From IMG/VR virus record IMGVR_UViG_3300048597_000651, positions 1 through 50,608 of that record: 50,608 bases of DNA, one strand, 5' to 3'. Every line of letters begins with the position of its first letter. The stretch's first letter is position 1. This stretch comes from a virus. Lineage: Duplodnaviria; Caudoviricetes. Positions 15,554 through 50,608 of the stretch are shown one piece after another. A program made the translations under genes and the position numbers. Under the pieces are notes generated by a model, which saw only the letters and a program-made list of their open reading frames with translations, did no database searches and was not told the DNA's origin.

Positions 15554-18172
15554 TCATGGCACCAACCCCGTTTCTTCGTCCCACCCATCCGGCTTCTCCA
15601 GCACGGGCACCACGTAGCACCGGCAGCCTGGATGCGCGCCAGGACGCTCATATCGCTTGTCGGTCTCAGGATCGACAAAGGGTGATCCAATGGGGCGCAT
15701 CTGCCCCACGAGCCGGCCACACACCGGACACACGCCATCATCCTGCACGCTGTTCCACATGTTGCCCCACACGCCGGCGGCCTCCCACGCCAGGTGGTTG
15801 CCAGCGGCAAAAGCGTTGGTCGTCTCGCTCTGCGCAATCAAGCGCGCGCGCTTGGGGTCGTCGATGAGCGCGTTGACGCGCTGGGTAAGCGCCGGCAACG
15901 CTTCGCCGGCTTTGATCCAGTCTGCGACCGCAACGCGAATGTCTGCAACGGTCGTTGCCTGCAACTGTTTGATGAGCCTGCCGGCATTCGCGCGCGCCCA
16001 CGACTCTGCCGCCGTATTGACCAGCGACCAATCCACGCTGGCGCGCAAGCCGGCAGAGATGACACCAGGCGCATCGCCGGCCCTACCGCGCGCCTCATCC
16101 GTGCCGTGCGTGATCGAACGCAACAGCCACACAAACACCGCCGGCAGCAGGATCACGATGAAGGATTGCCAGAACGATGCGCCGGTCGACATGCTGCTCG
16201 CGGCCGGCGGAACAGGCGCAGGATCATCGGCGCGCTTTGATCGCCCCTGCGAAGCGGCCAACGCGTCAATGTAGGCGTGCCAAAGTTCGGGATTGTCAGC
16301 CGCTATCGCTTCGGCCTGCGCTTGATCTCCAGCGGCCAACGCGCCGCTGATGAGTGCCAGTTTCGCCGCCAGATCATCCGTCATGCCGTCCTCGATCTTG
16401 CGCCGCCCCGCCGTCGGATGCTGTTCACCCTTCGACAGGGTCAACGCTTTTGGGATGTCTCGTGTTCGGAATATCTTGTTGATGTCGCTGGCGTTGTTTG
16501 CCAGTGCGAGCGCGCCACGGATGCGCTTTTGCACTGATAGCGGTATCGCGCCGGCGCTCACTGCCGGCGGCTCACAGTCGGGTTTTTTTCCGTCCCACAA
16601 TCTCCGCACCGATTTCTCGCGCCAGTGATCCAGAGCGAGTTTGGTAAATGCCGGCGGCACGTCGTCTTTGGCCGTTGCACTGGCCGGCGTGTCGTCCTGC
16701 GGTGCGTCTGCACCATCCCCGCCATCATCGCCGGCAAATGGCGCGAGTTGCGCCGGTGGTGACGCAAGGGGCGAAACAGCGGGCGAAACAGCGGGCGGCG
16801 GCGGATTAAACAGATCATCGAGCAGGATCGGCGCACCGGACACGATGATGAACGGTTTGGCGTTGGCGATGGCCGGCTGACCCTCTTTCGCGCGCCACAC
16901 GTTGATGTCGATCACGCCGTTTTGAAGCTGCGTTTGCATCAGCGCTGCCGCTGCGGCTTTGTCTTCCTCCGGCCCAATATTCACGAAACGCCACACCAGC
17001 GGCAATTTGGTCTGGCGTTGCACGATGCCGGTGAAAAGGTTTTGCAGATACTGCGTCAGCGGCCCAATGCCGAAGCGGTACATGCTGTTTTCCTGCCCTT
17101 CGAGAAACCCCTTGCCGCCGAGTCCCGCGCCGGCCACCAGCCCCAGCTCGCTGGGCAGGAAACCAAACGCGTAGCAGGTCATGCGCAACATCCACTCGTC
17201 GAATGCGTTCGACGCGGCAGCATCTGGCCGGCGAAATTCATACACCGGCTGCCCGCCGCCCGGGCTGGGCAGGAACTTGATGCGGCGCAGCTTCTCGACG
17301 TTGCCGGCCAGGAGTGCATCGATGTAGTTCTGAAACGTCTCGATCTGCTCAGGCGTCCAGTCGGAAGGTAGAAACGCGAATGCCTCCGGCACGTTGGTTG
17401 TGTCCCAGTACGACGTGGCGGCGAACTGCCGGCGCAGCGCCTCATTGATGCGCAGGATCAAAAACTCAATCGGGCTTTTGCCGTAGGGGCTGGATGCGCT
17501 CGTGTTGAACGGGCGATACAGCAGGCGGTCGGCGGTGAACCACTGCCAGTTGCGCCCCTTGATGGCCTGCATGTACGCCGGCACGGGCGCGCGCGGGATG
17601 CGTCCACGCTGGTCGAGCAGCGGGCGAATCGTGCTACCGTCGATCTGCTCCACGCTCACGATTTGGCCGCCGGCGTCCTGATCGATCCACAGGCTCACCG
17701 CGTCATACACCAGCAGATCCTCGAGCACCGCGTTGCACCACGCATCGAACTCCGTCATGCCGTCAGGCTTGCGCCAGAATGCGCGCAGCGCGTCGATCTC
17801 GCCGGCGTAGTCGGTTTTGTCAGCCAGATCGCCCTTCTGGATGTCCCATTCCAGCGAGCGAATCTCGCGCTTCACCGCCTCAATCACGATGCGCACGGCG
17901 TCTGACACATCGGCGAAGTTTTTGAGTTGCGCAAACGGCATCTGCCCATACCCGCTGCGCGGCGTCATATACAGGTTGATGCCGGACTGGTAGTCGAACA
18001 CGCGTGGCTTTTCAGCGGCGTCGGCAAAGGGCGGCAGGGGAATGCCAGGGGTGAACACGCCGTTCGCGCCCCACGCGCCGGCGTAGGCTTGCGCCATCTG
18101 CGTGCCCGTCTGCGTGCCGGCGGGAGCCGCGCTCGTTGCATCGGTTGCATCGTTGATCTCGTTATTCGCCAT
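15554..18172 (-). CDS. Portal protein fused to MuF-like minor head protein
   Basis: N-terminal portal motifs (IDGSTIRP, YGKSPIE); C-terminal RARLIAQSETT...VCPVC...PGAHPGCRC. Confidence 0.85.
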   Translation of the reverse strand: MANNEINDATDATSAAPAGTQTGTQMAQAYAGAWGANGVFTPGIPLPPFADAAEKPRVFDYQSGINLYMTPRSGYGQMPFAQLKNFADVSDAVRIVIEAVKREIRSLEWDIQKGDLADKTDYAGEIDALRAFWRKPDGMTEFDAWCNAVLEDLLVYDAVSLWIDQDAGGQIVSVEQIDGSTIRPLLDQRGRIPRAPVPAYMQAIKGRNWQWFTADRLLYRPFNTSASSPYGKSPIEFLILRINEALRRQFAATSYWDTTNVPEAFAFLPSDWTPEQIETFQNYIDALLAGNVEKLRRIKFLPSPGGGQPVYEFRRPDAAASNAFDEWMLRMTCYAFGFLPSELGLVAGAGLGGKGFLEGQENSMYRFGIGPLTQYLQNLFTGIVQRQTKLPLVWRFVNIGPEEDKAAAAALMQTQLQNGVIDINVWRAKEGQPAIANAKPFIIVSGAPILLDDLFNPPPPAVSPAVSPLASPPAQLAPFAGDDGGDGADAPQDDTPASATAKDDVPPAFTKLALDHWREKSVRRLWDGKKPDCEPPAVSAGAIPLSVQKRIRGALALANNASDINKIFRTRDIPKALTLSKGEQHPTAGRRKIEDGMTDDLAAKLALISGALAAGDQAQAEAIAADNPELWHAYIDALAASQGRSKRADDPAPVPPAASSMSTGASFWQSFIVILLPAVFVWLLRSITHGTDEARGRAGDAPGVISAGLRASVDWSLVNTAAESWARANAGRLIKQLQATTVADIRVAVADWIKAGEALPALTQRVNALIDDPKRARLIAQSETTNAFAAGNHLAWEAAGVWGNMWNSVQDDGVCPVCGRLVGQMRPIGSPFVDPETDKRYERPGAHPGCRCYVVPVLEKPDGWDEETGLVP

Positions 18173-19652
18173 GCTGTCCTCCTTGTTGCGTCTCTTCGTT
18201 CTGCATGCGCTCCATCTGCGATTGCGCGTGCTGCACCCACCCTGGCGTGCCGCTCGACATCATTGCAAACACCCCGCTGACGGCATCCACGCGATCATCG
18301 TGTGCCGCAAACGGGAATGCGCTCATCTCCTCCACCCAATCCGCGATCCATGTGTCGTCGTTGACGGTTTCCCGAACCAGCGCGAGCTTGCCCATCTCGG
18401 CGCGGTCGGCCACCGGCTGGGCGCGCGCGATTTTGTCGGTGTGCACATCCACCGCGCGCAGGGCGATGTTGACCAGTTCCTTTTCTCGCATCAGTTCCTG
18501 CACCATCGGCGCGCCGTGGGCCTTAGCCTCGACACCATGCCGCGTGTCGCGCTCGTCGAGCATCAGCTCCTTGACCATCCTGCGCGCATCGGGGCTTTCC
18601 ATTTTGCCGGCGCGACCACGTCGCAGATACAGCATGCCATCTGCGCCAAATGCCCCAGCAATCGTGGCGGTGTTGTCGGCCTGTTGTTTGAGGCTGTATG
18701 CCAGGTCGTAATAACGCACCCAGCGCAAGCCCGCCGGCGCCGCATCGACAATGCGCAGCCACGGCTTTTTGAAAATAGAGCCTTCAGCGGGGCGCGGCTT
18801 CTGTTGGTATTTTGCCAACCACGAACGTTCACTCACGCCGCGAATGGCGTTGAGTTCTGCCAGCGGCCAGCGCGCCGGCCACAACGCATCGCCGCTTTTG
18901 CGTCCAAGCGGGTCGGCGTCTTCGGCGATGGCGGGCAGTGTGACCACCTGCCATCGTTCACCTTTGCGCGTTGCATCGTTGAGCAGCCGGCCGGCGAGAT
19001 CGTCCTCATGCCATCGCTGCATCATGCAGATGATGGCGCCGCCAGGCTCTAAGCGCGGGCGGATTGTGTCGGTATACCAGGTGTAGACGCTTTCGCGCGC
19101 GGCCATGCTGTCAGCCTCCTCGGCTTTGCCGATGGGGTCGTCGATGATGATGACGCGCGCGCCCTGCCCCGTCGGCGACCCACCCACACCCACAGCGAGC
19201 ATGGCAGGGCGCGTGTGCTTGTGCAGCGTCCACCGCTGCACAGTGGCGTTGTCGTCGCTGAGTTGCGTCAGCGGGAACAGGTTCTGATATGACTCCATCT
19301 CGATCATGTTGCGGACGTTGCGGCTGAATGTGTAGGCCAGTTCGGCAGTGTGACTCGTCACCATGAACTGCTGCGACCTGTCGCGCCCCAGGCACCACGC
19401 CGGCCACAACTCGCTTGTCAACTTCGATTTGCCGTGTCTGGGCGGCGCAAAAATCATCAGGCGCTTCACATCGCCCCGTTCCACCCGCTCCAGCCATTCG
19501 GCAATGTGCGCCAGATGCGACGCCGGCTCATACGACGAATCCACCAAATGGACAAAGTCCATCAGGTGCCGGCGCGCCAGCTCGCGCTGTGCCTCCTCAC
19601 GGCGATTTCGCTCCCTTCTGTCCAGTTCCGCCCGCGCCTGCAACGATGGCAC
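18162..19652 (-). CDS. terL: Terminase large subunit
   Basis: APPRHGKS Walker A, IIIDDP Walker B, YYDLA nuclease motif and HDDRVDA; start estimated at GTG 19652. Confidence 0.93.
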   Translation of the reverse strand: MPSLQARAELDRRERNRREEAQRELARRHLMDFVHLVDSSYEPASHLAHIAEWLERVERGDVKRLMIFAPPRHGKSKLTSELWPAWCLGRDRSQQFMVTSHTAELAYTFSRNVRNMIEMESYQNLFPLTQLSDDNATVQRWTLHKHTRPAMLAVGVGGSPTGQGARVIIIDDPIGKAEEADSMAARESVYTWYTDTIRPRLEPGGAIICMMQRWHEDDLAGRLLNDATRKGERWQVVTLPAIAEDADPLGRKSGDALWPARWPLAELNAIRGVSERSWLAKYQQKPRPAEGSIFKKPWLRIVDAAPAGLRWVRYYDLAYSLKQQADNTATIAGAFGADGMLYLRRGRAGKMESPDARRMVKELMLDERDTRHGVEAKAHGAPMVQELMREKELVNIALRAVDVHTDKIARAQPVADRAEMGKLALVRETVNDDTWIADWVEEMSAFPFAAHDDRVDAVSGVFAMMSSGTPGWVQHAQSQMERMQNEETQQGGQHGE

Positions 19653-19974
19653 GGAGTTCGTCGTCACTGAGGTCGGCAAGCTCGCTCCAGGCATCTTCGT
19701 CGGCGCGCTCAAACCCGATGGTTTGTTTCGGCTTGCCGATGAGGTATTCGTAGATTTGCTGCCGCGCCCGCGCGCGGACTTGCCCGTCTCCCTCGGTCGT
19801 CGCGTCCTTGAGGTTGACCTCGACGACTTTGCGGAAGTCCTCTTCGTCGATGACCGCCGCGATGATCGCGAGCCGCGCGGCTTCGCGGGCTTTCGGCGCC
19901 CGCCCGCCGATGCCTTTGTGCCCTTCGACAAATTGCCCTTTTTCGTTGCGCTCACTCACATCAACCTCTGTCAT
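19597..19974 (-). CDS. terS: Terminase small subunit
   Basis: RNEKGQFVEGHKG N-terminus, GKPKQ and LSDDEL motifs; directly upstream of terL. Confidence 0.75.
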   Translation of the reverse strand: MTEVDVSERNEKGQFVEGHKGIGGRAPKAREAARLAIIAAVIDEEDFRKVVEVNLKDATTEGDGQVRARARQQIYEYLIGKPKQTIGFERADEDAWSELADLSDDELRAIVAGAGGTGQKGAKSP

Positions 19975-29407: not shown

Positions 29408-30202
29408 ATGATCGCCAAAACTGCGCCCGTCGGCATCTGCGACCACTGCGCCGGCCCCATCCACCCCGACGAGTGGTTCACGCGCCGCGGCCCGCGCCGC
29501 TACTGCTGCATTGACTGCCGCAACACAGCGAACAGCCGCAACGGCAACCCCGTGCGCACGGCCAAGCTGCGTGAAAGCGTGGCCGCCGGCGCATGGCACA
29601 ACCCGCGCGAGCGCATGACGCCGGAGCAGATCAGCGCGGTGCAGTCGCACGCATCCCGTGCAGGCCGGCTGCGCGAAGTGCGTGAGGGGCGCTGGCGCAA
29701 CCCTGCCCTGGACGCCGCCGCGCGGGAGAAACTCAGCCGGCCACGCAAACACGCCGGCGCACTCCACATCGCCATCGAGCGCATCCGTGCCGGCGCGCAT
29801 GTCGCCGATCTGACCATCGACGAGCAGGCCGCCTATCGCGCCCACGCGCACGCGCTGCGCGAGCGTTACAAGCGCGATGAGGCGTTCATCCAATCGTTGC
29901 GCAGCCGGCGCGACATCGCCGACCTGCGCGTGTCGAAGGACGTGTTCGCCATCCGGCTCGACCTGTGGCCGGCTGGCGTGACACATGCCCTGCCGAGCTA
30001 CGATCCTGACGCGCGCCAGATCGTGATCCTGCCCGTGCCGGCGCAGCGATTGCCCCTGCAAGGGACGTATCGCGTGTCGCAGAATGGCCGGCGCATGGCC
30101 GTGCTGGCGAGCCGGCTGCTGAAGCGATTCGAGATTGCTGCCGGCGAGTGGCAGCTCGTCGCTCATGGCGCCGGCGGGCAGATGGTGTTCGAGAGGGCGT
30201 GA
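29408..30202 (+). CDS. Zn-finger, Arg-rich putative DNA-binding protein
   Basis: CDHC...YCCIDCR; basic helical repeats. Confidence 0.6.
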   Translation: MIAKTAPVGICDHCAGPIHPDEWFTRRGPRRYCCIDCRNTANSRNGNPVRTAKLRESVAAGAWHNPRERMTPEQISAVQSHASRAGRLREVREGRWRNPALDAAAREKLSRPRKHAGALHIAIERIRAGAHVADLTIDEQAAYRAHAHALRERYKRDEAFIQSLRSRRDIADLRVSKDVFAIRLDLWPAGVTHALPSYDPDARQIVILPVPAQRLPLQGTYRVSQNGRRMAVLASRLLKRFEIAAGEWQLVAHGAGGQMVFERA

Positions 30203-30237
30203 TGCGGCGCGCGATGGAGAGTGACGCCCTACCCTAG

Positions 30238-30277
30238 ACGAAACAAGCCCAGACCGGTTGGTCTGGGCTTGTTTCGT
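30238..30277. terminator. Bidirectional intrinsic terminator
   Basis: Perfect 18-bp inverted repeat ACGAAACAAGCCCAGACC/GGTCTGGGCTTGTTTCGT between convergent operons. Confidence 0.85.
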
Positions 30278-30297
30278 TTGACCTCAAATGCGACTCG

Positions 30298-30540
30298 TCA
30301 CCCACCGACATCTTCCGGCTGTGGCAGTGCCACGAAGCGCGGCTTGCCTGCATCGTTCCACGTCACGCCGGCGCCACTGATCGTAATCACCAGCGCGCCG
30401 GCTTCCTCACTCACGGTCACGTCCGCGACGCGCGCAACGTCGCGCCACAGAATGTCACGAATCACGCTCAGCGCCATGTCGAGACTGACGTTTTTGCTGG
30501 GCGGCACGTTTGCGCCTGGACTGAGTTTCACGGTTTGCAT
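30298..30540 (-). CDS. Small hypothetical protein (last gene of the early-left operon)
   Basis: AGGAGGG RBS, MQTVKLSPG..., 80 aa. Confidence 0.6.
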   Translation of the reverse strand: MQTVKLSPGANVPPSKNVSLDMALSVIRDILWRDVARVADVTVSEEAGALVITISGAGVTWNDAGKPRFVALPQPEDVGG

Positions 30541-31061
30541 AATATTCTTCCCTCCTGTTTTCATCCGGCAAGTCCTCAAACTTGCCACCGCCGCCGGCGT
30601 ATGTTTCGCGCAGGTCGCCACTGCCACGACGCAGAATATACCGCTTGCCACGATCCATGACCTCGATGCGCCAGGCAGCCTCATCATCATCGTCTTTTGC
30701 GTTGCCACGAACGCTGCCACGAGACGGATTTTGCGTTTGTGGCAACATCAACGATTCACTGGTTTTTTCCCTGCGTGGCAGTGCCACGAACTCGCTTCGT
30801 GGCACTGCCACAGACTGCGCCGGCAACGCCGGTGGCAGCGACTCAAACGAATCGCTGCCACCGCCATTCACCACTGCCGGCGCTACGGTTTTGGGATGGA
30901 CTCCAAATCCTGTGGCACCGGCCAACCCTGCGCCGGCGCATCGCTCACCTCACCCGTGGCATCGTATGGCGTGCCGTTCTCGCTGAGCCGCGCCGCCTCT
31001 GGTTTATGTTCGCTTGCAAGCGCCGCCGCCTTTGCATCATCAACGGTTTCAGATTTGCCAC
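30321..31061. repeat. Dispersed bidirectional TGCCAC/GTGGCA motif array
   Basis: 17 copies counted by eye, 14 of them within 30583-30961; includes GTGGCA-N-TGCCAC palindromes. Confidence 0.8.
30455..30888 (-). CDS. -1 frame extension of the membrane protein (basic putative DNA-binding domain)
   Basis: Open -1 frame from the slippery C CCA AAA; ends WRIEV..GKRYILRRGSG..GGKF..SRRKRAAQQKRQ. Confidence 0.6.
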
Positions 31062-32322
31062 TCGCGACCAACTCGGTTTTTCGACGCGGGTCAAAAACTG
31101 ACCAGTGCGGTGTAGGCCAGTCATACACGGTGAGGTGCAGCCCGCCCCTTTTGCGCTTGTAAAGTGCCCGTTCAGGATTCGCGAATCGCTCTATCGCCCA
31201 TCCATCCCCAGCCTCTTTCACGCCCTCGTCGGCCAGCGTCGTGCCGGCGGTGAGTTGCGGCGCTGACTGTTCGCCGCGCAGTGCTTGCCGAATCTCGCCC
31301 ACGCCGGCGCGGGTGCCATTGATGCGACCGGCGATGCGCGTGGAGAGTGGGGCGGCATTCGCCGGCCTCATCACCCGCGCCGGCGCATCTGCCGGAATGT
31401 CGACCAGCGACGTGATGACGTGCGCTGCGATGGTCAGAATGAGCGACAGCCCGACTGCGCTGACATACAGCGTCGCGCCGACTTCACCCAGCGCGCTCAC
31501 GATGGGCACATCGATTTCCGCAAGCGTGGAGATGGTCTCCACGCTCACGGCAGCGAGAAACAGACCAAACGCGATGGTGGCGATGCGCCACAGCCACATG
31601 TCGAACATATCGCGCCGCTGCGTGGCACGAATGAGCATCAGGTAACTCCACAGGAAACACGACTCCAGCACGAAGCCGGCCAGTCCGGCGACGAGCGGGT
31701 TGATGTTGCGCGACAGGCCGAAATACACTGACGCCGCCGCGCTGACGGCCACGCCCACGCCTTTGGCAATGAATCCGAGGTACTTGGATGACGCTGCCGA
31801 CGCGCTGGCATAGTCGCTCTTGTCGTGTGCGGCAAGGGGCAGGGTGATTGCCGGCACCAGCGCCACGCCGGCAAGCAGCGCCGCCACCAGCCGGCCAACG
31901 CTCGTCAGGCCATCCGGCACTGTCAGCAGGCCGCCACGCAGCGCGCTGTTCAGAGCAACCAGTGCCAGCACCAGAAACGACCATGCGATCAGTACGATCG
32001 CGCCCAGCCCGCGCAGTGGCGCGTGGGTGGATGTGAGGACGATGAACAGCACGCCGACGCACACGCCAACGCTCGACAGGGTTGCCAGCGCCGCCTCGAC
32101 CAGCGTCGCGCCGAGGCGCATCTGAAACAACTCTATGACGCTGTAGGCGGCGAACGCCACCACCGCGCAAAACAGCAGCACAGCCAGCGCAAATGCCAGC
32201 GGCTTGAGAAAGCGAAAGTCGATGGGGCCGTCCTGCGTGTCGTCTGCGACCTGCGGGCCAGGGGATGCAGGTTGAGAGGGCTTCTTGTTCTTGCCCGTGA
32301 TTGCATCGAGAATCTTTCCCAT
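30883..32322 (-). CDS. Multipass membrane protein (~8 TM) with cytoplasmic tail
   Basis: G-rich RBS, MGKILDAITGK start; many hydrophobic helices; 479 aa. Confidence 0.8.
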   Translation of the reverse strand: MGKILDAITGKNKKPSQPASPGPQVADDTQDGPIDFRFLKPLAFALAVLLFCAVVAFAAYSVIELFQMRLGATLVEAALATLSSVGVCVGVLFIVLTSTHAPLRGLGAIVLIAWSFLVLALVALNSALRGGLLTVPDGLTSVGRLVAALLAGVALVPAITLPLAAHDKSDYASASAASSKYLGFIAKGVGVAVSAAASVYFGLSRNINPLVAGLAGFVLESCFLWSYLMLIRATQRRDMFDMWLWRIATIAFGLFLAAVSVETISTLAEIDVPIVSALGEVGATLYVSAVGLSLILTIAAHVITSLVDIPADAPARVMRPANAAPLSTRIAGRINGTRAGVGEIRQALRGEQSAPQLTAGTTLADEGVKEAGDGWAIERFANPERALYKRKRGGLHLTVYDWPTPHWSVFDPRRKTELVASGKSETVDDAKAAALASEHKPEAARLSENGTPYDATGEVSDAPAQGWPVPQDLESIPKP

Positions 32323-32323
32323 G

Positions 32324-32590
32324 TCAGTTTCCCCCCTTGCGTGGCTTGTCCGAGCCGTCCATCGCTCGGATAACCTGTATCGTAAACAGGTGAATCGTCG
32401 CAACCAAAAGCGATCCCCCAACCATTGCTGCAAGCAACATGGGCGGCACGCGAAAGTCAGTGAGGAGCATGGCCGCGATCAAACCGAGCGTAATCGTTGG
32501 CAATGCGCGTGTAATGATGCTGAGCGGCCTGATTCCGGCTAGCGCAAGCGCAATCACCATGCCTGCAAAAAATGCAATCTGCTCGCTCAT
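32324..32590 (-). CDS. Small 3-TM membrane protein
   Basis: 88 aa, hydrophobic, coupled to its neighbours. Confidence 0.7.
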   Translation of the reverse strand: MSEQIAFFAGMVIALALAGIRPLSIITRALPTITLGLIAAMLLTDFRVPPMLLAAMVGGSLLVATIHLFTIQVIRAMDGSDKPRKGGN

Positions 32591-33117
32591 GGCTGCACCT
32601 CATGCGATGCAGCAACGGCGGTTTCCCACGCGCTAGTACAACCGATCACCATGTCAACATCGCCTGTTCTCGGCGTCGGCTGCGGTGTGCGCATGTCACA
32701 CGCAGATGCATCCGCGTAGCCTCTCACGCCATTCGTCGCGCGAATCGCCGGCGGCTGCGGCGTGACGACGATCACCTGCGTCTGCACGTCGATTACCTGT
32801 CGCGTCACCTCAACCGTCGCCGGCACAATCACCGTCGCCGGCACAATGCGCGTTGCTTCAACGATGCGTGTCACCTCCAGTATTTGCGGTTCAACGCGCG
32901 GTTCAACGGGGGCAAAGCTGGGCGTCTCCGATGGGGCAGGGGCGGGCGTCGCCGGCGACGCTTGCTGCTGAGACTGCTGCTGAGACTGCTGTGGCATGTT
33001 TGTGCCGGCCAACCTGCGCAATTCCTCATTGCCGCCGGTGCCGTCGCTGCAACCGGCCAGCACGACCGCGACGATGAGGATCATCGCCAGTCCGATCAAT
33101 CGAAATACGTTCTGCAT
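32587..33117 (-). CDS. Lipoprotein with Pro/Gln linker and VEVTR-type repeats
   Basis: Lipobox VLAGC; GAGG RBS. Confidence 0.75.
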   Translation of the reverse strand: MQNVFRLIGLAMILIVAVVLAGCSDGTGGNEELRRLAGTNMPQQSQQQSQQQASPATPAPAPSETPSFAPVEPRVEPQILEVTRIVEATRIVPATVIVPATVEVTRQVIDVQTQVIVVTPQPPAIRATNGVRGYADASACDMRTPQPTPRTGDVDMVIGCTSAWETAVAASHEVQP

Positions 33118-33156
33118 GGTTACCTCTTTTGAATCTTGTAATCTCGTCTACAATCT

Positions 33157-33220
33157 CGCTCCGGCGCGAGTTGACTACCTCTCTCGCGCTGCCAGCGGTG
33201 ACAGCCGCTGGCCTTTTTGT
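33157..33220 (+). ncRNA. Candidate antisense small RNA
   Basis: TACAAT at 33149-33154; hairpin GCGCGAG/CTCGCGC; terminator GCCAGCGG/CCGCTGGC followed by CTTTTTGT. Confidence 0.45.
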
Positions 33221-33222
33221 CT

Positions 33223-33360
33223 CTACCGTCCACCTCCACCGCACCCGAAGAACCAGCGCGCAAACACGCCCAACACAAAACCGCTGCCGGCGCCGATGAA
33301 CAGCGCGCCGGCAACCATGACGCCCAGCAGGGTGCCCACATCATTCGGATTCAGTTCCAT
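33223..33360 (-). CDS. 45-aa single-TM peptide
   Basis: AAAGGAG RBS; MELNPNDVGTLLGVMVAGALFIGAGSGFVLGVFARWFFGCGGGGR; below the ORF-track length cutoff. Confidence 0.65.
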   Translation of the reverse strand: MELNPNDVGTLLGVMVAGALFIGAGSGFVLGVFARWFFGCGGGGR

Positions 33361-34080: not shown

Positions 34081-35142
34081 CTACATCGACCGCTCCTGTG
34101 ATCGCTCCTGTTCTTCCCGCCGGCGCTTCTCCTCGCGCTCGACTGCCTCAGCCTCTTTGCGCGCCCGCTCGGATTCGGTATACACCGCCTGCGAGCGACG
34201 AAACGTTCTGCCATTTGCCATCTGCCGCTCGGCCTGTTTACGTTCGCGTTCTGCGCGCTGTTTGAGTGTGTCGTCGGCACTCTCTGCCGGTTGCGCCGGC
34301 GGCATCTCGAACAGCACCATCTGGCCGGTTTCGGCATATTCCTCAAGGATGCAGATGCCGACCGCCGTCACACTGCGCACCAGCCCGACCCGCTGCCGTG
34401 CCGCCGTTGATTCCTGCGCCCGTCGCAAATCGGCCAGAATTTCCTCTGTCCGCTCGACCGTAAAATGCTTCGCGGCCAGCGCGACAATCGCGTCACACAA
34501 CACCTGGCGCTTGCGTCCGGCGATGCCAAACTCGTAAATCACCGCCAGCACGCGCTTGCGGAAATCCGCCAGAAGCTCGAAGCGCGCCGTCCCCTCAAGA
34601 GGATTCACAAAGTTCACAAAGTTCATGCCAGCAGCAGCTTGCATGCTGCTTGCTTGATTAACTTCTGTAGTACGTACATGTACTGATTCAGAGCAGATTT
34701 CGCGTGAACTTTGTGAACTTTGTGAACTTTGTGAACTTTGAGCCACGCCTAAACATGAACTTTGTGAACTTTGTGAACTTTGTGGATTTACAAAGTTCAC
34801 AAAGTTCATGCTGTTTTGCACATCGTTTTGCGCAATGTTTCCCACGTCCGGGGCAACCGGAAGTTCACCCGTCGGGGCAACCGACATGAGCTGCGCGCCG
34901 CCTGCGCGCAACAGGTGAACCGTCGTGGCACTTTGCTTGTTTTGCTTGCGGCTGATCCAGCCGCCGGCTTCCAGTTCCTGCATCCAACGCACGACCAGCG
35001 GGTAGGCGCAACTCAGCGCCTTCGCCAGATCGGCATTTCGTGTGGTGAGCGCATCGCCACCGGCGTGCTGCCGCAGCCGGTCGTAGAAACGCTGCGCCTT
35101 CTCGCTCGGTTTCTCGCACGGTTTTGCGTTGTCGTGTGTCAA
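34081..35142 (-). CDS. Replication initiator (N-terminal wHTH, internal iterons)
   Basis: NADLAKALSCAYPLVVRWMQELEAGGWISR HTH; internal 9-bp repeats, as in lambda O-type genes. Confidence 0.75.
   Translation of the reverse strand: MTHDNAKPCEKPSEKAQRFYDRLRQHAGGDALTTRNADLAKALSCAYPLVVRWMQELEAGGWISRKQNKQSATTVHLLRAGGAQLMSVAPTGELPVAPDVGNIAQNDVQNSMNFVNFVNPQSSQSSQSSCLGVAQSSQSSQSSQSSREICSESVHVRTTEVNQASSMQAAAGMNFVNFVNPLEGTARFELLADFRKRVLAVIYEFGIAGRKRQVLCDAIVALAAKHFTVERTEEILADLRRAQESTAARQRVGLVRSVTAVGICILEEYAETGQMVLFEMPPAQPAESADDTLKQRAERERKQAERQMANGRTFRRSQAVYTESERARKEAEAVEREEKRRREEQERSQERSM
34604..34810. repeat. Putative replication origin: 9-bp iterons GTGAACTTT in both orientations
   Basis: Blocks at 34604-34626 (rev), 34704-34740 (fwd x4), 34755-34785 (fwd) and 34788-34810 (rev), around an AT-richer palindromic spacer. 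Confidence 0.8.
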
Positions 35143-38354: not shown

Positions 38355-38771
38355 TCAAGCCGGCTTGCTTCGCTTGCCAGTTCCCTTATCAGCAGCGCGT
38401 GGCTTGCTTTGTCGAGTCGTGTGCGCGATCTGTCGAAGAATCGCCGTAACGATTCCGACAGCCTTTCTCTTTTCATTTTCGTCTTCGATATCGTTGAGGA
38501 GTTCGGCAAACAGTTTCGTTTCATCGTCGTTGCTTCGATCCTCTCCCTCATCCATCAAACCAAATTCACGAAAGACTATCTCTGGAGACACGCTGAGCCC
38601 GCGTGCAATCCCTTTGGCAATTTTGGGGCCGACATTTCTACGACCGGCATATACGTGAGTCAGTGCAGAGCTGTTGAAATCGCCGCGCCGTGCCAACTCG
38701 GAGCGGTCAATCCCTGCCAGCCTTAGCTGCTCATCCAACCATTGAATGCCTTCTTCGGTCGTTTTTGTCAT
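38355..38771 (-). CDS. Phage repressor (XRE HTH)
   Basis: RSELARRGDFNSSALTHVYAGRRNVG; divergent from the early-right operon. Confidence 0.85.
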   Translation of the reverse strand: MTKTTEEGIQWLDEQLRLAGIDRSELARRGDFNSSALTHVYAGRRNVGPKIAKGIARGLSVSPEIVFREFGLMDEGEDRSNDDETKLFAELLNDIEDENEKRKAVGIVTAILRQIAHTTRQSKPRAADKGTGKRSKPA

Positions 38772-45965: not shown

Positions 45966-46919
45966 ATGAGTAAAGAACTGGTTGTTTCCACCCAGAAGAC
46001 TGACTATCAGGCCGCCAATGCTTACCTGATGTCGCTCAGCATCACCGGCCGCGGCAGCATGGAGTCGTCGCTGCGATTGGTGGCGCGTGTGATGGGCGCT
46101 GAAGATTACACGCGGGTCAATTGGGCATCGCTCAACGCCGCCAACGTGCAAGCGCTGGTGTCGAAAATTCGAGAGACACCCACCGAGCGCGGCACGGCGC
46201 GCTCACCCAACAGCGTGCATACCGTCCTCAATGCGCTCAAGGGCGTCGCGAAGGCCGCTTGGCGTCGCAACACGATCAACACCGACACATGGGAGCGCAT
46301 CCGTGATCTGAAAGCGCCACGCGGTTCGCGTCTGCCGGCTGGCCGTGACATTGCGCCCATCGAGCGCGCCGTGCTCATTTCCTCAGCCGTCGAAGATGAT
46401 CGCGCCGCCGGCGTCCGCGATGCCGCGATCATAGCTATGCTGATGGCGACGGGCATGCGCCGCGCCGAGTTGGTCGCACTCGCACTAGAAGACATCGAGA
46501 TGGCGACCGGCAAGATCACCATCATCGGCAAGGGCAACAAGGAACGCACCACCTATCTGGGTGATGAGACGATGCAGGCGCTGCGCGACTGGCTCCATGT
46601 GCGCGGCATGGACGCCGGCCCGTTGTTCTGCGCGATCACGAAAGGCGGCGCATTGCAGCGCGACCGCCACATGAGTCCTACCGCGCTGCACTACATCATT
46701 CAGCGCCGCGTGGACAGCGCCGGCCTGAGCAAGATGACCGCGCATGATTTCCGGCGCACACTCGCCGGCGATCTGCTCGACGAGAACATCGACATCTCCA
46801 CCGTCGGCGAGATGCTGGGTCATTCAGACCCGAAGACGACGAAGAAATATGACCGGCGCGGCGAGCGTGCAAAGCGACGGGCGGCCACGCACGTGCATGT
46901 GCCATACAAGCGAGGTTAA
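45966..46919 (+). CDS. Tyrosine recombinase (XerC/D-like)
   Basis: GMRRAEL, GKGNKER, HDFRR, LGH and catalytic Y. Confidence 0.93.
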   Translation: MSKELVVSTQKTDYQAANAYLMSLSITGRGSMESSLRLVARVMGAEDYTRVNWASLNAANVQALVSKIRETPTERGTARSPNSVHTVLNALKGVAKAAWRRNTINTDTWERIRDLKAPRGSRLPAGRDIAPIERAVLISSAVEDDRAAGVRDAAIIAMLMATGMRRAELVALALEDIEMATGKITIIGKGNKERTTYLGDETMQALRDWLHVRGMDAGPLFCAITKGGALQRDRHMSPTALHYIIQRRVDSAGLSKMTAHDFRRTLAGDLLDENIDISTVGEMLGHSDPKTTKKYDRRGERAKRRAATHVHVPYKRG

Positions 46920-46921
46920 TC

Positions 46922-47479
46922 ATGCCAATGAAAGACAACAAGATGACACAGGTAATCAGTGAGTTCTTCAAATCAATGGTTGAAGCCATGGGTGTAGACA
47001 GTTGGAATTTTGGCTTGCCGGTGATTACACGAAATATCTATGATCTTTCGTTACACAAATACATTCTCACAAAAGAGGAAGCCAAAATTGTGTATGAAAG
47101 TCATCTGGCTTTCTATGATCTTGTCGGCGAAGAATCAATCAAGCGTTACAACGAAGCAGTGTTTGCATTCCACGACGATCCCTTGCAGGCTGGATTCGAG
47201 CAGCAAAAGTTTGAAACTGGAGCATGGGTATACGTGATTGGAACACCAGAAGGCGAATACAAGATCGGCTGGTCTATCGCCCCAGAGAAACGTATTGAGC
47301 AAGTCACTGCTCCATCTCACGGCAAGAAGGAGTTGCTTCACGTGATTCGCTGTGCGAACGCTGCAAGAACCGAAAACATTCTTCATCAAACATTTCACCA
47401 CAAACGTATTGAAAGAGAATGGTTCAGATTGACTCCAGAAGATGTGGCATGGCTGAAATCCATTTCGGAGTGGCCGTAG
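46922..47479 (+). CDS. GIY-YIG (T5orf172-like) nuclease domain protein, lower GC
   Basis: VYVI...YKIGWS..PEKRI...E..LH..F..KR...EWF.L. Confidence 0.85.
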   Translation: MPMKDNKMTQVISEFFKSMVEAMGVDSWNFGLPVITRNIYDLSLHKYILTKEEAKIVYESHLAFYDLVGEESIKRYNEAVFAFHDDPLQAGFEQQKFETGAWVYVIGTPEGEYKIGWSIAPEKRIEQVTAPSHGKKELLHVIRCANAARTENILHQTFHHKRIEREWFRLTPEDVAWLKSISEWP

Positions 47480-48736: not shown

Positions 48737-48929
48737 ACTGGTGGCGCGTTACCTTCCCACGGGGACGTTCCGCAACCCGCAAACAGCCGCAGGGGTGGTT
48801 GACAATCCGTCAAGCCTTCTACAATACGACCAGTATTTCGTCATGTTCGTCGAAGCCTTCGTGCCATGGGCATTAAACGAGTTGCAGAAGAGCAGCCCCC
48901 CACTATCAATAACGCCGGCTGGCCGTTAG
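48723..48929 (+). CDS. Small protein upstream of the integrase (RDF candidate)
   Basis: AGGAGG RBS, ATG 48723; overlaps the integrase start. RDF role is inferred from position only. Confidence 0.45.
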   Translation: MRVSELVARYLPTGTFRNPQTAAGVVDNPSSLLQYDQYFVMFVEAFVPWALNELQKSSPPLSITPAGR

Positions 48930-50608
48930 CCGGCGGCTACTACCGCAAGTCGCAGGTATTCGGCGAAGAGGATCGCGTCAGCACCGCACGTCAGCGCGAA
49001 GCGATCCTGCGCGAAGGCGAGCGCACCGGACACAACATCGAATGGTGGTGCGATGAGGAAGGCCATCGCTCAGGCCGGCACGATCACACGCGGCCAGGCT
49101 ACATGCAGTTCAAGCGCCGGCTTATTTCCGGCGCATATCGCACGGTCATCTTCTATCGTCTTGACCGCGCCAACCGCTCGATCAAAGAGACGATCTGGCT
49201 GGTCGAACACTGCCAGAAGGCCGGCGTGCGCCTCATCATCATCCGCGACGGCTTCGACTCTGCCCGTGACGGCTGGCAGGCGCGCGCGATTCGCCGGCTG
49301 TATCACGACGCGGTTGACAATCAGGGCGAAGCCGACGATGCCGCCGACCGGATGCGTGATGCGATCCGGCACGCGAAATCGAAGGGCATTCCGTGGGGCA
49401 CGACGCCGAAAGGGCTGCTGCGCGTCGGCATCGGCTCACAGGCGCGCTGGGTGAAGCGCGCAGCGCATGAGCCTCGCTCAAAACGCCAAACTGACAATAG
49501 CGCCGGCGACGTGCGCACGTGGCTGACGCTGTTTGCGACGCACTCATATCAGGCGACCGCCGACGAAGCCAACCGGCGCGGCATGCGCTGGTACGATCGC
49601 GACGGCCTGCCCACCCCGCTCACGCCTGAGCGCATCCGCCAGATCGCCGGCAACCTGCTGACCTACTGCGGCTACGTCATGCCGGCAGCCGGCCACTCTA
49701 AAGCGCGACTGGTGAAGCTGGACGGATCGGGCAGCCTGCTCGACCAATTCGCGCGCGCTTACGACGCCGTGCGCACGGATCACATCGAGCCGATTCTTGA
49801 TCCTGTGGCCGATGCACGCCTGATCGAGCGCATCATCACCAAGCGCCGCAATGCGCAGGGCGCGCTGGATGATCGTGGCCGGCGCGCAAAGAAACGCTGT
49901 GGCATCCTCACGCCGGCGCTGTTCTGGAAACGCGACGACGGCCGGCTGATAAAACTGCGGTCACACGACAACAACGGCACGCACTACTACATCACCCGCG
50001 TCAGGCCGCAGATGAGCTGGCACGCGGAAGCCGTTGAGGACATGCTGCTGGAGCAACTGCGCGGTGTGACGTTCCCGCCGGCGGCGCGCGATGCGCTGCG
50101 CCGGATCATCGCCGCGCAACACGACGACGCCAAACACGCAGAGGCGCAGACCAGTGTCACCCGCGCGCGCAACCGGCTGATTGCGATTGATGAAATGCGT
50201 GTCGAACTGAAGGCGAGACGGGCCGGCGGCGAGATCGACGCGAATCGCTACGCAGAGGACGACGCGCGCTACAGGCAAATGCAGCACGACGCCGAGTTGC
50301 AGCTCTTTCAGGCGCAGCGCGTGCTATCGAGCGCCGGCGACATAGACCAGGTGATTAAGCTGTTGAGCGATCTGGGTGAGGGCATCAGCCGGCTCACGCC
50401 GGAGATGAAGCGCCAGGCCCTGCAGGGGCTGTTCGCAAAGAAGATCATCAGCACCGCCGGCGAGATTGTGCGGCTGGAGCCTCAAGCGTGGATTGCGCAG
50501 CCCTTTGGCGAGCTGGTGTGGGCGTGGCGACATTCGCACCCCGCCCACAATGCTGGAGATATACCAAATGTGACCCCTACGGGACTCGAACCCGTGTTTA
50601 AGCCTTGA
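48866..50608 (+). CDS. Large serine recombinase (integrase)
   Basis: YYRKS catalytic motif, RSGR..TRPG, YRLDRANR, coiled-coil C-terminal region; 580 aa. Confidence 0.92.
   Translation: MGIKRVAEEQPPTINNAGWPLAGGYYRKSQVFGEEDRVSTARQREAILREGERTGHNIEWWCDEEGHRSGRHDHTRPGYMQFKRRLISGAYRTVIFYRLDRANRSIKETIWLVEHCQKAGVRLIIIRDGFDSARDGWQARAIRRLYHDAVDNQGEADDAADRMRDAIRHAKSKGIPWGTTPKGLLRVGIGSQARWVKRAAHEPRSKRQTDNSAGDVRTWLTLFATHSYQATADEANRRGMRWYDRDGLPTPLTPERIRQIAGNLLTYCGYVMPAAGHSKARLVKLDGSGSLLDQFARAYDAVRTDHIEPILDPVADARLIERIITKRRNAQGALDDRGRRAKKRCGILTPALFWKRDDGRLIKLRSHDNNGTHYYITRVRPQMSWHAEAVEDMLLEQLRGVTFPPAARDALRRIIAAQHDDAKHAEAQTSVTRARNRLIAIDEMRVELKARRAGGEIDANRYAEDDARYRQMQHDAELQLFQAQRVLSSAGDIDQVIKLLSDLGEGISRLTPEMKRQALQGLFAKKIISTAGEIVRLEPQAWIAQPFGELVWAWRHSHPAHNAGDIPNVTPTGLEPVFKP
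50569..50608 (-). tRNA. 3' half of tRNA-Glu (att core), truncated by the window edge
   Basis: Reverse complement reads TCAA GGCTT AAAC ACGGG TTCGAGT CCCGT AGGGGTC A: end of anticodon loop, T-arm and acceptor strand. Confidence 0.8.

Follow-up and report, generated by a model that had tools for sequence, protein, structure and literature searches.

The IMG/VR record IMGVR_UViG_3300048597_000651 is a complete provirus of 50,608 bp, the whole of which was analysed here and is referred to as the window. One of its early leftward genes encodes a membrane protein with eight predicted transmembrane (TM) segments, and, judged from the signals at its 3' end and their recurrence in homologous loci, this gene very probably undergoes programmed -1 ribosomal frameshifting. 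The predicted products are a short protein of 479 amino acids (aa) and a long one of 622 aa (478+144), the latter ending in a small domain, called WRIEV here. It appears probable that frameshifting thereby creates a membrane-anchored binding isoform. A preliminary description of this DNA had proposed two isoforms of 479 and ~620 aa arising in this way, and the proposal held when homologues were compared. Nearly all known cases of programmed frameshifting in phages concern genes of the virion, such as those for tail chaperones and for decorations of capsid and tail, whereas the gene described here is an early membrane-protein gene.

The 8-TM gene ends TCC ATC CCA AAA CCG TAG, with the TAG at positions 30885-30883. 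The slippery heptamer C CCA AAA was confirmed in the sequence; it has the X XXY YYZ phase relative to the zero frame, and a single codon separates it from the stop. Downstream of it, the folded stretch 30900-30810 is predicted to form a two-tier stem-loop, the presumed frameshift stimulator, in which an outer stem of 9 bp (30883-30875 with 30825-30817) encloses an inner hairpin (30863-30830). The outer stem and its distance of 5 nucleotides (nt) from the heptamer agree with the preliminary description; the inner hairpin, to which 12 bp had been assigned, has 15 consecutive pairs and 3 more. The minimum free energy of the stem-loop is -54.1 kcal/mol, compared with -33.1 +/- 3.2 for shuffled sequences (z -6.55), and none of 200 shuffles was as stable. 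An intrinsic terminator was rejected as an explanation of the hairpin, since no T-run follows position 30817 and the terminator scan reports none there; Rfam and the promoter/terminator scan gave no match at the hairpin.

As had been claimed, the -1 frame stays open for a further 144 codons (30889-30458), up to a stop codon at 30457-30455, and the junction reads SIPK/TVAPAVV. An open -1 frame is by itself weak evidence in this GC-rich genome, because 30 of the 101 stop-to-stop open reading frames (ORFs) of at least 150 codons in the window have a -1 frame that is open for at least 80 codons past their stop. An in-phase heptamer within the last three codons occurs in 2 of these 101 ORFs, and the heptamer together with a long -1 frame was found in the 8-TM gene only. 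The extension had been described as basic, which is correct for its last ~30 residues; the extension as a whole is not strongly so, with 26 lysines and arginines (K+R) against 23 aspartates and glutamates.

Homologous DNA was collected by a pattern search, which yielded 1 viral, 2 genome and 19 metagenome loci, 17 of them including the 3' end of the gene. (Viral contigs had yielded no relative when the TM protein was the only query; alignment-based searches then succeeded.) The 17 loci form 8 clusters at 90% aa identity and, with the window, 9 lineages. In 15 of the 17 the gene ends with an in-phase C CCA AAA TAG or A AAA AAA TAG, the -1 frame being open for 81-149 codons, and in L005 and L009-L011 seven consecutive A make up the slip site. 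Conservation of heptamer, hairpin and -1 ORF, which had been suggested as a check, was found in 7 of the 9 lineages, window included, with a conserved domain at the end of the -1 ORF. In five lineages, the most typical ones, the -1 ORFs have GWR[IV]EV..NR.[YW]...R[KR]GS... and a following basic tail in common, and that of L009 is more divergent. The linkers and the zero-frame C-termini cannot be aligned across the lineages.

The RNA structure recurs with the heptamer. Heptamer lineages have a stable downstream fold (-36 to -66 kcal/mol per ~100 nt), with L013/L022 showing poor structure at the site itself and a strong hairpin ~70 nt downstream, and the fold is weak in the two loci without the heptamer (-16 and -19). 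The window, L005 and L009 have in common the two-tier design and much of its sequence (CGCCGGC..GGTGAATGGCG..TGGCA..TGCCA..GCCGGCG), although the proteins are just 48% identical. RNAalifold of these three sequences gave 25 pairs, 5 of them with compensatory changes. At the protein level, the 8-TM protein has 31 homologues in a set of 5.8 billion proteins, of which 21 end in PK or KK plus 0-2 residues (our own count, made on the proteins only); such ends are what the two heptamers at a stop codon would encode.

The two exceptions, L008 and L012, have neither heptamer nor -1 ORF and carry a separate +1-frame ORF that starts at an ATG of its own and codes for a basic zinc ribbon (L008:3223-3460 and L012:6168-6462; motif CTECG..YTCSDKCRRKRARR). 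A similar zinc ribbon is fused in frame to the database homologues P0014 and P0017. It seems that the anchor depends on a basic partner domain of one kind or another.

When viral contigs were searched with the WRIEV domain, 13 loci were obtained, one of which (L027) is L005 again. In all 11 loci that have an upstream multi-TM ORF, the WRIEV ORF overlaps it in the -1 frame, and all 10 new loci of this kind (L005/L027 aside) contain an in-phase X XXY YYZ heptamer in the overlap. This is A AAC CCT in L028, L032, L033, L034 and L037, the DNA AAACCCTAC being conserved in all five; the others are C CCA AAC (L029, L033), T TTA AAC (L028), C CCA AAA (L030), G GGA AAA (L035) and C CCT TTT (L038, L039). 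In most of these loci a hairpin lies a few bases past the heptamer. The upstream proteins have 2-4 predicted TM segments by a simple hydropathy rule, which also served for the TM counts of the database WRIEV proteins described below, and their hhalign probability against the 8-TM family is 2.7%, which is not significant. Because these not detectably related 2-4-TM proteins also precede a -1-frame WRIEV ORF, what is constant, as far as sequence comparison goes, is a membrane anchor, a -1 slip and a WRIEV domain, and no particular anchor. Of the remaining two WRIEV loci, L031 is a T5orf172 fusion and L036 lies near a contig end. It may be added that A AAC CCT is an unusual slippery site with Y=C.

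The same loci could be explained by two separate genes, with the WRIEV ORF translated alone, starting at a GTG or ATG past the stop or at an internal ATG, perhaps through termination and reinitiation, and with the heptamer and hairpin having no recoding role. Several observations speak for this and weigh against frameshifting. A start codon stands 3-4 codons past the stop in the window (GTG GTG), L005 and L009 (ATG in both); there is an internal ATG in L013/L014; and L019 has an ATG adjoining GGAGG, at a spacing of just 2 nt. Relatives of the WRIEV ORF are called as separate proteins of 58-220 aa, of which 105 of 128 begin with M, and many appear free-standing, at 60-80 aa with a Met of their own, which means that an anchor is not required. 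L008 and L012 manage without any frameshift and show that a separate basic partner gene is viable. It should also be noted that a single series of related samples supplied many of the metagenome loci, and the 15 of 17 loci do not represent 15 independent events. On the other side, none of the candidate starts in the window, L005, L009 and L013 is preceded by a Shine-Dalgarno sequence; the best start ahead of the domain in the window reaches -5.0 kcal/mol, compared with -7.2 to -10.8 for four neighbouring genes, and the nearest start codon is located within the outer stem. The preliminary description had named a start of its own for the -1 ORF as evidence against frameshifting, and to this extent start codons do exist, all without a Shine-Dalgarno sequence in the window, L005 and L009. 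Two separate genes would, moreover, leave unexplained why 7 of 9 lineages and 10 of 10 loci with other TM proteins have in-phase heptamers, of seven different sequences, exactly where the two ORFs meet, and why in 11 of 11 cases the frame of the WRIEV ORF is -1 and open from the heptamer on. We therefore consider two independent genes unlikely.

Still less probable, to the point of being negligible, is an artefact or decay, that is, an indel or mutation splitting a continuous gene, or transcriptional slippage on an A-run. The seven-A run of L005 and L009-L011 can support polymerase slippage or sequencing error, but the window has only four A, and the arrangement is repeated in independent assemblies and lineages. 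There is also no in-frame version among the 128 relatives: a search for natural in-frame fusions, another check that had been suggested, found a multi-TM fusion in 0 of the 128 WRIEV proteins and a single hydrophobic segment in 2.

The WRIEV domain was examined with a profile built from five domains, which was searched against 1.84 billion representative proteins (E<=0.001). The domain is carried by 128 representative proteins, 29 of them at E<=1e-10, with the consensus GWRIEVTxxGxYWQWRRGSGxNRxSRYGGKFxxLSxERKxAYxxNK. The median length of these proteins is 112 aa, and the domain is almost always C-terminal. An AlphaFold2 (AF2) model of the domain consists of a beta-hairpin and a long helix (pLDDT 81.3). 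Some members are fused to MUG113/T5orf172 (GIY-YIG-like) or HNH_3 nuclease modules, as confirmed for P0096, P0157 and P0145, and some have a PD-(D/E)XK-like N-terminus (by eye); the Arm DNA-binding domain of integrases (PF13356) matches 5 of 50 members below threshold (best E 0.0022). Because of the MUG113/T5orf172 and HNH_3 fusions and the Arm matches, we favour, with some reserve, a nucleic-acid-binding module as the nature of the WRIEV domain. DNA binding by the extension is indirectly supported by the same nuclease fusions and by the repeat arrays described below.

In size, in having a beta-hairpin followed by a helix and in its position behind HNH_3, the WRIEV domain resembles the integrase Arm domain and AP2-like binders, AP2-type domains being usual behind HNH_3 nucleases. 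Unlike these, it matches Arm only below the curated threshold, and no such fold was found in PDB or BFVD; the AP2/Arm identity is a lead only. Both this and the fold searches, which returned no match in PDB, VIA wide (best Z 3.8) or BFVD, weaken the case for DNA binding. A PDB sequence search with the WRIEV profile gave chance-level rows only, and ESM Atlas returned only unnamed viral or Chloroflexota clusters, all under 0.9. Three long, secreted-looking proteins (P0137, P0156, P0160) contain at least three repeats of the type ..W[PN]xxCLGL..C....GWR[IV].V.....W.YR.. Because these match just the first 20 residues of the WRIEV profile, the beta-hairpin motif of the domain is also present in an unrelated repeat setting.

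The DNA encoding the extension contains an array of TGGCA-core repeats (consensus tcgTGGCA) in both orientations. The window has 45 copies of GTGGCA, of which 17 fall within the 741 bp of 30321-31061, an even distribution giving an expected 0.66; between the slip site and the ORF end, the Poisson P for TGGCA is 2e-8. Perfect 13-bp palindromes GTGGCA-N-TGCCAC number 3 in the window compared with 0.34 expected, a number reached by 0 of 100 shuffles, and all three are in the array stretch. The third lies inside the next gene, and L005 likewise has one further palindrome in its following gene. In L005 the repeat is tttcTGGCAcat, present ~12 times in both orientations and read as VPE one way and SGT the other; once it forms an 18-bp perfect palindrome, read FWHVPE.

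Since full pairing as RNA is impossible for a palindrome of 13 bp whose centre is a single nucleotide, and since the opposite orientations encode unrelated peptides, the composition of the array argues for a DNA-level element. A peptide repeat was rejected as the cause of the array on the ground that both orientations occur and encode different peptides (peptide-repeat readings of database proteins were made by eye). A non-coding intergenic iteron region was rejected as well, as the -1 frame encodes a domain conserved in 128 proteins. Enrichment was assessed in 17 loci with a TM gene and WRIEV, over the stretch from the slip site to 150 bp beyond the ORF. For 7 of the 17 (the window, L005, L030, L033, L037, L038, L039) the excess of TGGCA has P<1e-3, and for L034 and L035 P<0.05, while no enrichment was seen in L009, L013, L014, L019, L021, L028, L029 and L032; in several 4-TM loci the array is also present upstream of the slip site, inflating the background rate.

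It is conceivable, at a tentative level, that the TGGCA array is the target of the WRIEV domain and that the long isoform tethers the phage DNA to the membrane. Nearly as tentatively, the frameshift could be real and the array an origin, a centromere or an operator cluster bound by another phage protein, the MarR-like protein and the HTH protein (Table 1) being example candidates, with WRIEV binding elsewhere. Its partner under that explanation would be non-specific DNA, the hairpin of its own mRNA or a protein. Five lineages with heptamer, hairpin and WRIEV lack the TGGCA array (there is none in L009, L013, L014, L019 and L021 despite their frameshift signals); the array is not confined to the extension but reaches into both the TM gene and the gene that follows; and in the window, L005 and L009 two inverted copies of the repeat form the inner stem of the stimulatory hairpin, which makes a role at the RNA level possible. 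Three window copies, moreover, are in conserved domain codons (RGK, RGSG, GGKF) and may reflect protein constraint. WRIEV as the reader is in turn suggested by the recurrence of TGGCA-core arrays, with differing flanks, beside WRIEV ORFs in phages without any other recognisable protein in common, by the placement of all three perfect palindromes of the window in this locus, and by the absence of arrays where the TM gene has no WRIEV (L008, L012). The array is also absent from L031 and L036, which have WRIEV without a TM gene.

The mechanism that we propose starts with most ribosomes stopping at the TAG, which would give the 479-aa anchor form. Some would pause at the stem-loop 30883-30817 and slip by -1 on C CCA AAA, giving the 622-aa form, whose cytoplasmic C-terminus would consist of the variable linker and the WRIEV domain with its beta-hairpin and long basic helix. 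Frameshifting would set a fixed ratio between anchor-only and anchor-plus-binding-domain subunits. The WRIEV domain may then recognise the TGGCA repeats and palindromes in the DNA that encodes its own linker (30321-31061), and the long isoform would tie the phage genome to the membrane in early development, for replication, segregation or spread. More speculatively, this could be a widespread, self-contained phage module in which a frameshift sets the ratio of the bare anchor to the anchor with a sequence-specific WRIEV domain; the domain would act on a TGGCA "centromere" within the DNA of its own linker, and the long isoform would attach the phage chromosome to the membrane for replication, segregation or cell-to-cell spread in filamentous Chloroflexota hosts. 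That the anchor was swapped among unrelated TM families, with the frameshift and the domain kept, belongs to this wider proposal and is put forward just as guardedly.

The orientation of the 8-TM protein is compatible with such an arrangement. Its K+R number 18 on the N/C side and 3 on the opposite side, and because of this bias the positive-inside rule predicts a cytoplasmic C-terminus; both termini are predicted to be cytoplasmic. In the AF2 model of the 479-aa protein (mean pLDDT 65.8), eight long helices span residues 37-307; residues 327-348 then form an amphipathic helix, and 376-439 a small beta/alpha domain. This beta/alpha region (residues 365-445, window 30988-31230, pLDDT ~80) opens GDGWAIERF..YKRKRGG, resembling the start of the WRIEV domain, and the homologues P0003, P0004, P0019 and P0020 have one or two extra copies of such inserts. 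The region was rejected as a WRIEV relative: hhalign pairs GWAIERF with GWRIEV at a probability of 1.1%, which is not significant. Foldseek of the TM protein against PDB gave nothing at E<=0.001, and searches of Pfam and PHROGs with the TM protein, the extension and 8 neighbouring ORFs found nothing above threshold.

A different function, superinfection exclusion or defence, would have the membrane protein, the lipoprotein and the TM peptides encoded next to it expressed from the prophage and acting on incoming DNA at the envelope, the frameshift isoform then serving this purpose instead of replication or segregation of the phage itself. Exclusion systems typically comprise a lipoprotein and a membrane protein, the leftward operon begins with an HTH_3 gene and diverges from the operon with DdrB, RuvB and integrase genes, and the module is the last unit of its operon. 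Set against this are the lack of any Pfam or PHROG family for the module proteins, the position of the module directly 5' of a D5-type primase-helicase gene in L015 and the presence of a cognate-looking repeat array in the phage's own genome; we regard exclusion as rather improbable.

Two known systems illustrate the attachment of DNA to a membrane protein. The early protein p16.7 of phage phi29 is a membrane-anchored DNA-binding protein with a single N-terminal TM segment that organises membrane-associated replication. The principle proposed here, a membrane anchor joined to a DNA-binding domain, would be analogous; p16.7 is not known to involve a frameshift or a cognate repeat array, and no sequence relation to it was detected, no part of the present system having a Pfam or PHROG match. 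TraB of Streptomyces is a membrane-associated DNA handler with recognition repeats (clt) at or just past the 3' end of its own gene, the Spd proteins are small membrane proteins, and the hosts are filamentous. The short repeat array at the 3' end of a membrane-protein gene is reminiscent of TraB/clt, the reader of the array being putative here. The repeats differ in being TGGCA-core palindromes within a frameshift extension, and the replicon is that of a temperate tailed phage, which encodes a terminase, a portal protein and two recombinases. The likeness to spd/clt or to a segregation device in the preliminary description holds as an analogy, not as homology: the module contains no ATPase, FtsK-like or otherwise, the TM protein, the extension and the 8 neighbouring ORFs gave no Pfam or PHROG match that would link them to TraB or Spd, and the TM protein gave no fold match. 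No ParA or ParB was detected among the 30 window ORFs scanned with Pfam.

With regard to recoding, the closest precedent is the G/GT pair of lambda, in which ribosomes slip on an X XXY YYZ heptamer close to where the upstream ORF ends, so that a short protein and one with a C-terminal extension are made in a constant ratio. To our knowledge, the two frames of G/GT have never been found fused, and they are conserved across families without sequence similarity. The 8-TM gene shares with G/GT the -1 slip near the 3' end, the C-terminal extension and the absence of fusions of the two frames (0 of 128 here). It differs in not lying between tail tube and tape measure genes: it is part of an early leftward operon (30.3-32.3 kb), terminase and portal are ~10 kb away (15.5-20 kb), and its extension is a putative nucleic-acid-binding domain. 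The conservation of the G/GT frameshift in tail assembly chaperones is treated in sections of PMC5009743 and PMC10885494. The recoding signals of the 8-TM gene are in themselves textbook, of the G/GT, A2 and dnaX types. For Lactobacillus phage A2, the preliminary description names CCCAAAA as the slip signal, and a stem-loop accompanies it. The 8-TM gene and A2 share a slip near the stop and a C-terminal extension made by a minority of ribosomes, and differ in that the A2 products are virion proteins with Ig-like extensions, whereas here a non-virion membrane protein is extended. Passages of PMC5009743 describe two -1 frameshifts in head and tail genes of A2, which agrees with the frameshifting in structural genes stated in the preliminary description. 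The resemblance to Escherichia coli dnaX lies in a bacterial -1 shift at a heptamer with a lysine codon and a downstream hairpin, and the difference in that the dnaX shift truncates, whereas the present one extends by 144 residues. In dnaX, which encodes tau and gamma, A AAA AAG is followed by a stable hairpin 5-6 nt downstream.

A frameshifted phage membrane protein was not encountered in a narrow literature search, although the supplementary category tables of PRFect might list some. The word "membrane" occurs 0 times in the PRFect main text (PMC10885494), and "membrane protein" 0 times in the first 300,000 characters of PMC5009743. A class of frameshifted early membrane-protein genes thus apparently stands undescribed so far. 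Frameshifting appears to join one small domain of unknown fold to the anchors of two or more TM-protein families between which no relationship is detectable, which would make these a new gene class for recoding, and the domain family itself is new and fairly widespread, with its 128 representative clusters. Gene callers will systematically mis-annotate such loci as two genes. If the array is the WRIEV target, the system would offer a compact and easily testable case of sequence-specific replicon-membrane attachment. The idea of such attachment dates from the replicon model, and we know of few molecularly defined cases. The locus is also an entry point into the biology of the little-known Chloroflexota phages.

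Table 1. Features of the frameshift module and selected genes of the window, with example slip sites of other viral contigs
Feature	Position	Strand	Basis or remark
Slippery heptamer C CCA AAA, X XXY YYZ phase of zero frame	30889..30895	minus	one codon before stop
Two-tier stem-loop	30817..30883	minus	folded 30900-30810; starts 5 nt past heptamer; presumed frameshift stimulator
-1 frame extension, 144 codons + stop	30455..30889	minus	variable linker, then conserved domain
WRIEV domain (AAWRIEV..KRYILRRGSG..GGKF.. + long basic helix)	30455..30694	minus	alignments, 128 relatives, AF2
Zero-frame ORF, 479-aa 8-TM protein	30883..32322	minus	ORF and AF2 model
TGGCA-core repeat array, consensus tcgTGGCA	30321..31061	both	counts, flanks
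Perfect 13-bp palindrome GTGGCA-N-TGCCAC	30799..30811
Perfect 13-bp palindrome GTGGCA-N-TGCCAC	30775..30787
Perfect 13-bp palindrome	30321..30333		inside next gene; L005 counterpart in comparable place (6957/6963)
Example slip sites, viral contigs	L032:3432-3438, L033:3390-3399, L035:3453-3459, L038:3225-3231
45-aa TM peptide	33223..33360	minus	first conserved gene of module; ORF and BLASTP
176-aa lipoprotein, lipobox LAGC	32587..33117	minus	sequence
88-aa hydrophobic peptide	32324..32590	minus	stop 1 nt ahead of TM-gene ATG
80-aa gene	30298..30540	minus	strong Shine-Dalgarno (AGGAGGG, -10.8 kcal/mol); last gene of leftward operon
MarR-like winged-helix protein	34081..35142	minus	within HTH_3-headed leftward operon
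HTH_3 gene	38355..38771		heads leftward operon
Large terminase	18162..19955	minus
Portal	15554..18172	minus

The lipoprotein and TM peptides upstream of the 8-TM gene are present as the preliminary description had stated, and their genes are tightly packed or overlapping. The 45-aa TM peptide has counterparts among ORFs upstream of homologous TM genes (BLASTP: 60% over 35 aa and E 4e-11 in L009-L011, E 4e-6 in L005), and the lipoprotein is weakly similar (E 1e-6 to 3e-4) to the ORF immediately 5' of the TM gene in L005, L008 and L009-L011. For the 88-aa hydrophobic peptide, no family was found in Pfam or PHROG and no counterpart in the related loci. The ATG of the TM gene (32322-32320) is preceded by AAGGGGGG. 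Downstream, the 80-aa gene overlaps the last 28 codons of the extension; it has a positional counterpart in L005, with a BLASTP E value of 0.13 only. In the database protein P0136 a WRIEV domain is fused to a relative of the 80-aa gene (by eye), and this fusion suggests that the 80-aa protein works together with the WRIEV domain. The module is followed by a D5-type primase-helicase gene in L015 and by an integrase gene in L010.

The leftward operon headed by the HTH_3 gene encodes a trypsin-like protease, the MarR-like winged-helix protein and the frameshift-module proteins, and the rightward operon contains DdrB-like, RuvB-like, tyrosine-integrase, T5orf172 and serine-recombinase genes. Because the sole genome matches of the 8-TM protein are two short contigs of a Thermoflexales metagenome-assembled genome (1 of the 401 genomes of the phylum searched), the host is probably a member of the Chloroflexota. 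Comparison of 30200-33200 with 50,697 phage records by blastn gave no match.

The provirus has two recombinases, a tyrosine integrase and a large serine recombinase (45966-46919 and 48866-50608), with the T5orf172 protein encoded between them (46922-47479). In the gap between the convergent operons (30238-30331, minus strand), Rfam reports a Thr_leader match below threshold (32 bits, the gathering score being 55), which is probably merely a terminator-like hairpin. Within the MarR-like gene, the stretch 34704-34784 consists of a 9-bp unit, GTGAACTTT, repeated 9.3 times in tandem and read in the protein as NFVNFVN, and additional 9-bp repeats are found at 34604-34625 and 34790-34808. These repeats are possible origin iterons within a replication-initiator-like gene.

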